From: Cellvibrionaceae bacterium
GTDB lineage: Bacteria > Pseudomonadota > Gammaproteobacteria > Pseudomonadales > Cellvibrionaceae
Direction: 5' to 3'
Assembly (NCBI GenBank): GCA_033852115.1
Contig: JAWSVE010000008.1
Location: 6,933 to 30,932 of the forward strand
Length of the DNA: 24,000 nt
Positions 16,590 through 18,120 of this stretch are shown piece after piece. The notes beneath the pieces are model-generated. The model worked only from the letters and a program-made list of their open reading frames with translations, was not told the origin of the DNA and searched no databases. Positions within the stretch are counted from its first letter, which is position 1. Every line of letters starts with the position of its first letter. Position numbers and translations under genes: made by a program.

Positions 16590-18011
16590 TTACGGCTTGC
16601 AGGCGTCGGCTAAATAAACCCAGGGATGAACTTTACCGGTGCCGCCATACTTGGCGTAGTAGCGGTTTCTAACTCCCATATCAATCAGGCCGCGTTCTGT
16701 ATCGATTATCGCTGCTTCGTCGCCTGTGGCTAACTCGATGAAGGCTTCCATGTACATCCAGGCGCTAGGTGTTCGGCCATCTGTTGAAGAAATTCCTCGT
16801 GCGTTGTAATACCACCAACCGTTCATCTTTCCGAGTATTTTTTTAGGTCCGTAGTTGCTGTCGCGCATGCTGGCAAAATGGGCTGAATAGCTATTCATCA
16901 TGCCTATCCAGAGCGCCACATCGTCTTTGTCAGGTTTGCTGAGTGCAACGCCCCATTCGTTAAGTTTAGAAATAACATAAGCGTCTGTGAGGTTGCCGCT
17001 AGAACCGACATTATTATCGATGGGGTCGCTTTCACCATTTCCTTGTGCGCTTCGAGAGCCCGGTACCGTAGCATGGCGTCCCCGTGTGTACAGTAGCTCG
17101 TAATTTTTTATGTTCCAAACATCACTGGGGATAAGATCGGTTTTGGGGGACAGTGGGTCCCATATAATAACCTCATCTTCAGTCGATGATTTTACGCGTG
17201 GCACGACACCATTAAATCCGGATGAGGTCTCGTCAATCGCGTAGATGCCCACATATTCAAGGCTCTTAGCGCCGGGCAAATGCGTGAGTGCTGGCCACCA
17301 ATCTCCGGTACCGGGGACTGGGTCCAGGGCGCATATTTTTATTTCGAGACTTGGGAACCATTCAGAAAGGTAGTTTGCTGCAATGATGCAGGAAACCCCG
17401 CCTCGACTATGTCCGAGCAAGACAACTCGATCGAAGTTTTGTAAAAATAATTCAATTTTAATATTGTCTTCTTCGCTCCAGCGCAAACAAAAGTGGCCCG
17501 CTGTTGAGCTGTCGTTATTGTTCCACATGCCGTTATCGGTTTGCGGATACGCTAGATTGGCGCGAGTAAAATTGTCGGTATTTTGCGGTAACCACTCTTC
17601 ATCGAGTAGCTTGTTTAAATTGCCAACTTCTACCATATGAAATGTGACGCCCAGCATTTCGGCTAGTCCGGCCACAGTAATATATTCGAGAGATGCGCCC
17701 GTCACTGAATCATTAATAAACGCAGGGGCGCGCCTACATTCTGCCCAAGAGTCGCCAGTTTCGGGTTCGGATTCGATCGTCCATGCACGGATAGGCAGTA
17801 AGTCTCTATTCGTCCCATAGGGCCCACCACAACCATTCATCGTTACTGATAGGTGCTCACCGGGGTTTTTGTCAGAGATCAGTTTGTGGATCTTGCTTGG
17901 AACGTACCCCGAGTACGGATTATAGGAATACATTTCCCTCGGCTCACGAAAGACCAGTGCTTGATCTAAAAAACAATCTGTACCTGAATAACACAGAGTA
18001 AATGTTGCCAT
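16590..18011 (-). CDS. Alpha/beta-hydrolase, lipase/esterase-like (GHSRG nucleophile elbow), no signal peptide
   Basis: 473 aa with strong RBS AGGAGA. VVLLGHSRGGVSCIIAANYL is a classical GxSxG elbow after a beta strand. A downstream ICALDPVPGTG strand carries a candidate acid residue. The N-terminal FTLCYSGTDCF and the G-x-SRG-x elbow loosely recall DUF2235/Tle1-type phospholipases; I hold that resemblance with low confidence. Confidence 0.8.
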   Translation of the reverse strand: MATFTLCYSGTDCFLDQALVFREPREMYSYNPYSGYVPSKIHKLISDKNPGEHLSVTMNGCGGPYGTNRDLLPIRAWTIESEPETGDSWAECRRAPAFINDSVTGASLEYITVAGLAEMLGVTFHMVEVGNLNKLLDEEWLPQNTDNFTRANLAYPQTDNGMWNNNDSSTAGHFCLRWSEEDNIKIELFLQNFDRVVLLGHSRGGVSCIIAANYLSEWFPSLEIKICALDPVPGTGDWWPALTHLPGAKSLEYVGIYAIDETSSGFNGVVPRVKSSTEDEVIIWDPLSPKTDLIPSDVWNIKNYELLYTRGRHATVPGSRSAQGNGESDPIDNNVGSSGNLTDAYVISKLNEWGVALSKPDKDDVALWIGMMNSYSAHFASMRDSNYGPKKILGKMNGWWYYNARGISSTDGRTPSAWMYMEAFIELATGDEAAIIDTERGLIDMGVRNRYYAKYGGTGKVHPWVYLADACKP

Positions 18012-18104
18012 TATTATCTCCTGAATACTTGTAACACATTAGTTTGAGATCTATTGGTCTGATATAAAAAATCTTCCAATTGAAATCGGCTTGAAATGTG
18101 TCAG

Positions 18105-18120
18105 AGCAAAAGCGATACCA
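18105..18120 (-). promoter_or_regulatory. Candidate sigma-54 promoter (minus strand) for the hydrolase operon
   Basis: The reverse complement reads TGGTATCGCTTTTGCT. It has GG-N10-GC spacing and a TTGCT -12 element, ~85 nt upstream of the ATG at 18011. Confidence 0.55.

Follow-up and report, generated by a model that had tools for sequence, protein, structure and literature searches.

A 24,000-nucleotide (nt) stretch of contig JAWSVE010000008.1 from a Cellvibrionaceae bacterium (hereafter the window, whose numbering is used for all coordinates given without a locus name) carries, within an island of R-body (reb) genes, a gene for a 473-amino-acid (aa) α/β serine hydrolase that lacks export signals. 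We propose that this gene, together with its own candidate sigma-54 promoter, is a cassette encoding a Tle1/Lem25-like lipase that serves as a lineage-specific toxic cargo of R-bodies, a reading to which we give slightly less than an even chance. Ever since the description of the killer trait in Paramecium, R-bodies have been tied to eukaryotic cell killing. The toxin that accompanies them is still described as unknown in reviews up to July 2026 (PMC3583457, PMC8322103, PMC13430693), in agreement with the preliminary description of this DNA, which held that it had never been clearly identified. Homologous and related loci compared here are designated by L-numbers and the window locus by W.

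The hydrolase gene starts with ATG, preceded at a distance of 6 nt by a GGAG Shine-Dalgarno sequence, and is laid out as follows.

18018..18021, (-) strand: Shine-Dalgarno GGAG of the hydrolase gene, kept in L003 and L019
16590..18011, (-) strand: coding sequence (CDS) of the 473-aa signal-less α/β serine hydrolase of Tle1/Lem25-like fold, from its open reading frame (ORF), homologs, an AlphaFold2 (AF2) model and Foldseek
17979-17984, (-) strand: G10-T11, oxyanion-type motif
17406-17408, (-) strand: codon of S202, candidate nucleophile
17322-17324, (-) strand: codon of D230, candidate acid
17229-17234, (-) strand: codons of D260/E261, alternative candidate acid
17073-17075, (-) strand: codon of H313, candidate catalytic histidine

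The predicted product has a mass of 52.5 kDa and an acidic isoelectric point of 4.9, and a hypothetical protein of Aurantivibrio plasticivorans NBRC116494 in NCBI matches it at 100% identity. Neither a signal peptide nor a transmembrane segment is found in it, the highest 19-residue hydropathy being 1.41, and its N-terminal region shows no hydrophobic leader and no lysine or arginine in the first 10 residues. Across homologs the N terminus is kept from residue 2 onward, and in the AF2 model it forms a core β-strand; a signal peptide is therefore missing from the whole family. A plastic-degrading, PETase-like esterase, a candidate prompted by the organism name, was rejected given the missing signal peptide and Foldseek E-values of at least 0.1 for PETases and cutinases. 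When plasmids were searched by tblastn, matches to the hydrolase were weak and partial and came solely from Serratia and Proteus.

The protein belongs to a family without functional annotation. Nothing in Pfam matches it above threshold (there is one sub-threshold match, to Abhydrolase_6), and none of the 53 homologs retrieved by a word-indexed search bears a functional name. An exhaustive search with a hidden Markov model (HMM) gave ~25 full-length clusters at 50% identity and 776 more distant relatives. NCBIfam and PADLOC yielded zero matches for the hydrolase and its unannotated neighbors, and a known defense system was rejected on that ground. In an alignment of 46 homologs, five elements are invariant: G10-T11, G200-H-S-R-G204, D230-P-V-x-G-x-G236, D260-E261 and R312-H313. 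The GHSRG nucleophile elbow thus occupies residues 200-204 and is unchanged in every aligned sequence. The distant relatives share the pattern F-C-G-T ... G-[HWF]-S-R-G-[GA] ... DPVPG ... H, and D230 and H313 are kept at ≥90% across this wider superfamily as well. Among 70 distant relatives that were scanned, three match PF09994 (T6SS_Tle1-like_cat; best E 2.1e-7), and others bear Ank, FYVE, IQ or LRR domains.

The AF2 model is confident, with a predicted local distance difference test (pLDDT) of 92.6 and a predicted template modeling score (pTM) of 0.94, and reveals an α/β-hydrolase fold. S202 sits between strand 193-201 and helix 203-218, and D230, D260/E261 and H313 each come after a strand, in the canonical α/β-hydrolase order; the C terminus is a helical region of approximately residues 333-473. 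The acid may be either of two candidates. Conservation across the superfamily and an alignment with chlorophyllase would favor D230; the place after the next strand in the model and the glutamate proposed for Lem25 would favor D260/E261.

Foldseek searches against the PDB returned just two matches under E 1e-3, namely 4m0m (E 1.8e-7) and 4o5p_A (E 2.5e-5), with 6sjl_E, a Tle1 of enteroaggregative Escherichia coli, at rank 4 (E 1.5e-2). The identities of 4m0m, 4o5p and 6sjl are taken from PMC11696984, PMC2701608 and PMC12421835. 4m0m is Lpg2422/Lem25 of Legionella pneumophila, an uncharacterized α/β-hydrolase domain (PMC11696984) of a protein validated as a Dot/Icm substrate (PMC2701608), and 4o5p is PA3290, the Tle1 phospholipase of the Pseudomonas aeruginosa type VI secretion system (T6SS; PMC12421835). 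By sequence, the family profile matches 4m0m at E 4.1e-8 over 46 residues spanning GxSRG...D-x-VPG-x-G. We regard it as very probable that the protein is a Tle1/Lem25-like active serine hydrolase.

Lem25 is the top match to the hydrolase both in structure and by sequence profile. The two proteins have the motif G-x-S-R-G ... D-x-V-P-G-x-G in common, with the predicted nucleophile of Lem25, Ser144, aligned to S202, and both are without a classical signal peptide and without a known substrate. Lem25 differs in being a 756-aa protein with additional domains that is delivered into host cells by the type IVB secretion system (T4BSS), and in its predicted acid, Glu203 (PMC11696984). Overall identity to it is only 14%, at a TM-score of 0.37, and the window hydrolase, unlike Lem25, is encoded in a reb island and carries no known signal for translocation. 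Tle1 shares the fold of the catalytic core (Foldseek probability 0.99 for 4o5p_A) and, like the hydrolase, has an N-terminal x-G-T motif followed by a G-x-S-R-G elbow; PF09994 appears in HMM-linked relatives of the hydrolase family. In contrast to Tle1, the hydrolase has no VgrG or T6SS context and no periplasmic immunity gene around it, and its accessory domain, the C-terminal helical region, is unlike that of Tle1.

A third resemblance is to chlorophyllase (PF07224; PDB 8fjd), with local identity in GHSRGG ... (I/L)DPV-x-GTG and a profile E of 1e-3. Sub-threshold Chlorophyllase matches occur in 35 of the 46 family members, the best at E 1.2e-5. The Ser-to-Asp spacing of the hydrolase, ~28 residues, agrees with that of the chlorophyllase triad. 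However, the similarity spans just ~50 residues with weak scores throughout, and there is no biological tie to chlorophyll; the window hydrolase itself has no Chlorophyllase match at E ≤ 0.1, and the 50 best fold matches listed for it do not include chlorophyllase.

The preliminary description had presented a 473-aa, lipase-like hydrolase with a GHSRG elbow, no export signal and a resemblance to DUF2235/Tle1-type phospholipases. The ORF, the position of the elbow and the lack of signal peptide and transmembrane segments agree with this, and the elbow together with the conserved Ser, Asp and His supports a lipase-like serine hydrolase. The fold check it had outlined, an AlphaFold-type model with Foldseek, has Lem25 and Tle1 as its best matches. 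The resemblance to Tle1 is upheld by 4o5p, by 6sjl_E and by PF09994 in relatives, whereas the protein has no PF09994 match of its own. Because no member reaches PF09994, we do not assign the family to DUF2235 but regard it as a branch of the Tle1/Lem25-like lipase-effector superfamily that is new and unannotated.

Members of this family recur beside R-body genes. In an unbiased scan, the family alignment picked out 10 loci among GTDB representative genomes, and reb clusters lie ≤10 kilobases (kb) from the hydrolase gene in four of them (L001, L003, L004 and L007); other loci came from context look-ups of further homologs. With W counted, the same holds for 9 of 20 distinct loci, the window being joined by those below.

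L001: Pseudoalteromonadaceae metagenome-assembled genome (MAG)
L003: Cellvibrio MAG
L004: Curvibacter sp. CHRR-16
L007: Kangiella MAG
L011: Arenicella xantha (context look-up)
L012: Undibacterium cyanobacteriorum (context look-up)
L016 and L019: metagenome contigs (context look-up)

These reb-linked loci span Gamma- and Betaproteobacteria and represent two island architectures. The first has a 76-aa Reb type with a short enhancer-binding protein (EBP) carrying a Fis helix-turn-helix (HTH) domain (W, L003, L007 and L019, and also L022, an island discussed below). The second is Group-1-like, with 88-96-aa Rebs and HP1-like genes (L001, L004, L011, L012, L016). In L004, L012 and L016, the hydrolase gene closes a same-strand reb array as its final gene, with gaps of 50-96 bp. 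Reb clusters span a few kb and are confined to a minority of the genomes of proteobacteria, so that by a rough estimate chance linkage would be far below 1%. We hold it very likely that the hydrolase is genuinely linked to R-body islands.

The regulatory setting of the gene in the window is described by the following sites and genes.

18105..18120, (-) strand: sigma-54-type -24/-12 element, GG-N10-GC, TGGTATCGCTTTTGCT (18106-18120 reads TGGTATCGCTTTTGC), ~95 nt 5′ of the hydrolase ATG
10870..10884, (+) strand: sigma-54-like site 5′ of the main reb operon, with equivalents in L003 (12283) and L007 (10811)
13951..14011: back-to-back sigma-54-like sites, AGGCACCTAAGTTGC on (-) and TGGCATTCAACTTGC on (+)
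13389-13898, (-) strand, and 14111-15331, (+) strand: divergent island gene pair served by the back-to-back sites
7482..8453, (+) strand: sigma-54 EBP heading the reb island, AAA+ with GAFTGA, Fis-type HTH and no sensory domain, with homologs in many reb islands
15891..16109, (-) strand: divergent RebB-family gene, 72 aa (PF11747, E 1.1e-11), with a homolog in L022
16150..16165, (-) strand: terminator-like hairpin separating the 87-aa ORF from the RebB-like gene (6 bp, 5 GC, weak T tail)
16271..16534, (-) strand: 87-aa ORF 3′ of the hydrolase gene

The element ahead of the hydrolase gene is kept as TGGTACAGCTTTTGCC in L003 and L019. Together the three loci give the consensus TGGTA(T/C)(C/A)GCTTTTGC(T/C), a conserved island amid poorly alignable intergenic DNA. 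In L022, the element is missing along with the hydrolase gene, so that promoter and CDS behave like a single cassette. The back-to-back sites at 13951-14011 have one mismatch each to TGGCAC-N5-TTGC and, judged by sequence, suggest a larger sigma-54 regulon inside the island. In the Kangiella locus (L007), GG-N10-GC sites precede the hydrolase gene (1390) and two further island genes of ~465 aa (3266, 7295). A ~290-nt region 5′ of the L007 hydrolase gene (1146-1435), containing the sigma-54-like site TGGCACAGAGTATGCA, is repeated at ~90% identity 4.7 kb downstream (5837-6127).

At most near-clade loci (the near clade being defined by ≥44% identity to the window protein, 12 loci, and the distant clade by ≤36%, 8 loci), the hydrolase gene adjoins an AraC-HTH regulator or a ~510-aa fusion of a sigma-54 AAA+ domain to an AraC HTH (HTH_18). 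Such fusions, found at L001:3609-5144, L002:3602-5182, L004:11556-13106, L011:8016-9536, L012:15761-17368 and L017:3403-4923, are unusual regulators, and genes for an FHA protein and a Ser/Thr kinase often accompany them.

The preliminary description had also put forward a link between the hydrolase and the R-body genes, a sigma-54 promoter candidate for the hydrolase, a position upstream of and on the same strand as the RebB-like gene at 15891-16109, and, as a point to be checked, co-transcription with the latter. Reb genes within 10 kb in nearly half of the family loci, in two island types and two classes, support the link, and the promoter is supported by the phylogenetic footprint that W, L003 and L019 share. 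The position is as described, the RebB assignment is secure in Pfam, and the 87-aa ORF and the hairpin intervene. Co-transcription is doubtful because of this hairpin and because in L022 the small ORF and the RebB pair are retained, although neither the hydrolase gene nor its promoter is there. The 87-aa ORF was considered as a cognate immunity or chaperone partner and rejected: it is conserved solely in W, L003, L019 and L022, hence in one island type and not as a general partner, and it persists in L022 without the hydrolase.

As cargo, the hydrolase would act as follows. An accessory cassette, consisting of a sigma-54 promoter of its own and the CDS, would have been inserted in the reb island and would be activated along with the R-body genes by one or more sigma-54 activators of the island. 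The hydrolase would then build up harmlessly in the cytoplasm of the R-body-producing cell. Once the producer is eaten, acid-triggered R-body extension in the phagosome of the grazer would break the bacterial envelope and the phagosome or vacuole, and the freed enzyme would cleave host membrane lipids, probably by a phospholipase A-type activity. Extension in the phagosome with rupture of both bacterium and vacuole is the model of PMC3583457 and PMC8322103. Consistent with a role as cargo are the missing export signal, the lack of an immunity gene, the translocated effectors that are the nearest structural relatives, and the genes for phospholipase D (PLD), patatin and lysozyme that other reb islands carry.

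Several observations weigh against this proposal. With respect to the protein, none of the 46 family members, the hydrolase included, matches PF09994 (DUF2235) at E ≤ 0.1, and the Foldseek TM-scores are low (0.37 for 4m0m and 0.32 for 4o5p_A), so that the similarity is limited to the catalytic core. With respect to the promoter, the bare sigma-54 pattern is not enriched in the window (27 matches, as compared with 24 expected from shuffles); it is therefore position and conservation that carry the promoter call. With respect to linkage, reb genes accompany the hydrolase at 8-9 of the 12 near-clade loci and at only one of the eight in the distant clade. Neither reb genes nor island markers are seen in the available flanking DNA of L002, L005, L006, L008, L009, L010, L013, L015, L020 and L021, and three of these loci, L002, L020 and L021, belong to the near clade. 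L017 has PLD and EBP-AraC genes as in the Arenicella island, and its sequence ends before any reb genes.

The distribution among reb islands weighs in the same direction. L022, a metagenome contig found through a homolog of the 406-aa gene at 14111-15331, is syntenic gene for gene over 3168-13585 with window positions 7482-19414, from the EBP through the Reb genes, the 406-aa gene, a GNAT acetyltransferase gene, the RebB-like gene, the small ORF, a 126-aa paralog of a reb-cluster gene and an AraC regulator. It lacks exactly the hydrolase gene and its sigma-54 site, and the genes for the small ORF and the 126-aa paralog abut. In a reverse test, metagenome contigs scanned with a RebB alignment gave 79 reb loci, of which 20 were ≥8 kb and 17 of these had three or more reb genes. 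No member of the hydrolase family occurs in any of the 17 multi-reb islands among the 20 loci examined, and the positive control worked. Nor is the hydrolase reported in the accessible accounts of the published Caedibacter and P. aeruginosa reb clusters. The accessible parts of Raymann et al. 2013 and of a BMC Genomics 2026 survey mention no hydrolase or lipase among reb partners, and the survey expressly leaves non-Reb neighbors aside.

The hydrolase gene is accessory, not core, in reb islands. From its absence from L022 and from the 17 islands it follows that it is dispensable for R-body building and not a universal R-body toxin, and since it is found in a minority of reb islands it would be at best one of several lineage-specific cargoes. 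Accessory presence fits the idea of species-specific toxins put forward in PMC3583457, and L022 provides a natural presence/absence (negative) control. Absence from related reb islands, which the preliminary description had named as evidence against a toxic cargo, is thus partly borne out, for L022 and all 17 islands are without the gene.

The same pattern can be read differently, with the hydrolase as an island passenger: a regulated cytoplasmic esterase or lipase, active for example in lipid or ester turnover, under the adjoining AraC/EBP-type regulator in a variable region that also holds reb. We consider this unlikely. Presence and absence of the gene between otherwise identical islands, and its absence from the 17 others, would be expected of a passenger, and its steadiest neighbor is indeed an AraC-HTH or EBP-AraC fusion regulator, not reb (L001, L002, L003, L004, L011, L017, L019 and W). 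Moreover, L002 retains an EBP-kinase-FHA-hydrolase module with no reb in 10 kb, and the near-clade genes in L020 and L021 are set among ordinary transport and metabolic genes. However, reb linkage at ~45% of loci, in two unrelated island architectures and two proteobacterial classes, greatly exceeds the expectation for a passenger. The operon-terminal place in a reb array at three loci also argues against it, as do nearest structural relatives that are translocated effectors and not housekeeping esterases.

The lipase might instead attack the membrane of the producer itself and, together with island lysozymes, free the R-bodies or other cell contents, a self-lysis role that we judge quite unlikely. 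One objection is that enzymes of the Tle class exert their toxicity from the periplasm, whereas the cytoplasm tolerates them. In favor of self-lysis, a Phage_lysozyme gene is present in L016 and a Glyco_hydro_108 gene in L012, L006 has a GH25 lysozyme gene near the hydrolase gene (with no reb seen there), and Tle1-type enzymes kill bacteria through phospholipid degradation (PMC12421835). Yet the hydrolase has no export signal, no holin-like partner adjoins its gene, no lysozyme gene is found among the scanned ORFs of the window island, and R-body extension by itself is reported to rupture cells (PMC8322103).

It is improbable, in our estimation, that the protein is instead an orphan effector of a secretion system encoded elsewhere (a T6SS, a type IV secretion system or a contractile injection system), its proximity to reb reflecting a clustering of anti-eukaryote weapons. 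Effectors of the T6SS and of Dot/Icm are the nearest relatives in structure, L019 has a giant SpvB/TcdB/RHS toxin gene 4 kb from the hydrolase gene, and the context of L015 is rich in Fic, ankyrin and kinase genes, all of which would suit such an effector. However, Pfam reveals no T6SS element (VgrG, Hcp or PAAR), adaptor or immunity gene among the window ORFs or beside the examined homologs, and the hydrolase has no PAAR, MIX or Rhs-type N-terminal extension, its catalytic domain beginning at residue 2.

A part in R-body maturation, as a hydrolase or acyltransferase that processes, cross-links or lipid-anchors Reb subunits, is highly improbable: the gene does lie inside reb islands beside a GNAT acetyltransferase kept in W, L003, L019 and L022, and early work proposed post-translational modification of RebB (PMC3583457), but L022 and most other reb islands are without it, its family is found outside reb contexts too, and rebA, rebB and rebC suffice for R-bodies in E. 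coli (PMC3583457).

Beyond the genes already listed, the island in the window comprises the following.

10989..12065, (+) strand: main RebB array (Pfam), with three genes for proteins of 77-82 aa plus a divergent one for 70 aa
Between the divergent pair and the RebB-like gene: GNAT acetyltransferase gene
18383..18763, (+) strand: 126-aa gene divergent from the hydrolase gene, paralog of the reb-cluster gene at 12107-12409, (+) strand (BLASTP E 3e-9)
18824..19414, (-) strand: AraC-type HTH regulator beside the hydrolase gene, with homology across ~189 aa to 187-aa proteins in L003 and L019

Small genes stand between the EBP gene and the RebB genes, of which three are near-identical (10989-11794); the divergent Reb (11853-12065) and then Reb-like proteins follow. 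Paralogs of reb-cluster genes flank the hydrolase gene on both sides, and the 126-aa paralog and the RebB-like gene at 15891-16109 make up a second mini reb module around it. In the frame of the AraC-type regulator there is no ATG, GTG or TTG upstream of 19135, and the gene has either a rare start codon or an N-terminal truncation to 103 aa. The reb island of the window is complete, with three or four RebB genes, small proteins of Reb-like type and a sigma-54 EBP, and is comparable to the reb clusters and their partners HP1.1-1.4/HP2.1-2.4 (Raymann et al. 2013; BMC Genomics 2026). The hydrolase gene lies inside this island with Reb-family paralogs on its flanks; it differs from the known partners in being accessory and outside the conserved synteny core.

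The GC content of the island is ~0.40-0.45, compared with ~0.48-0.51 in the flanks, and its borders are acyl-CoA carboxylase/enoyl-CoA hydratase genes and pyrroloquinoline quinone (PQQ)-dehydrogenase/GGDEF genes. The window contains no tRNA genes and there are no meaningful repeats around the hydrolase gene, so no mobile-element boundary is identified; an Rfam scan of the window gave no matches. The acyl-CoA carboxylase (850-4158, (+) strand) is a single 1102-aa chain in which biotin carboxylase, biotinyl carrier and carboxyltransferase are fused, and together with the enoyl-CoA hydratase that follows it also flanks the hydrolase region in L001, L002 and L017. The 406-aa protein encoded at 14111-15331 (+) has no family match and only five homologs among 5.8 billion proteins, one of them in L022. 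Its AF2 model (pLDDT 55) is too poor for fold classification, and the protein may be another cargo specific to the island or may act in assembly.

Other islands and hydrolase loci have further genes of note. PLD-like phospholipase genes occur at L011:6383-7987 and L017:1703-3313, patatin and GH108 (Glyco_hydro_108) lysozyme genes in L012 (1-1048 and 13467-14048), a Phage_lysozyme gene at L016:2420-3157 and a metallophosphoesterase gene at L001:2087-3580; these may be accessory genes of lytic or toxic function that vary from island to island. In Group-1-like reb islands, a ~485-aa family with no Pfam match is encoded directly 5′ of the hydrolase gene (L011:4331-5788, L012:6797-8335, L012:8421-9905, L016:8495-9943 and L017:3-1094), with a duplication in Undibacterium. 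The toxin gene of L019, the closest homologous island, encodes a Tc-toxin-like SpvB/TcdB_toxin_midN/RHS protein of >2400 aa (L019:1-5807) and is placed ~4 kb 5′ of the hydrolase gene. PatG_D/PatG_C proteins are encoded near the hydrolase locus in L006 (11576-14179, a subtilase fusion) and at the island edge in L022 (16016-17948).

Viewed as a candidate R-body cargo, the hydrolase turns the old question of the R-body toxin into a directly testable one, with a scope limited to a minority of reb islands. It is a concrete, cloneable toxin candidate in a cultured strain, A. plasticivorans NBRC116494, with S202A as the obvious catalytically dead control, and the analysis supplies a predicted regulatory circuit of sigma-54 promoter and island EBP. 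What is new is the genetic, and presumably also the delivery, context of this family of lipase-effector-like hydrolases, a family that links the uncharacterized Legionella effector Lem25 to the Tle1 phospholipases. More tentatively, and with a chance of perhaps one in three, R-bodies in aquatic proteobacteria may be a secretion-system-independent delivery device, of which the hydrolase would be the first identified cargo, expressed through the same sigma-54 switch and released into the phagosome or cytosol of a predator as the ribbon unrolls. If this is true, the lipase-effector superfamily would have been recruited by three unrelated delivery machines: the T6SS, the T4BSS and R-bodies.

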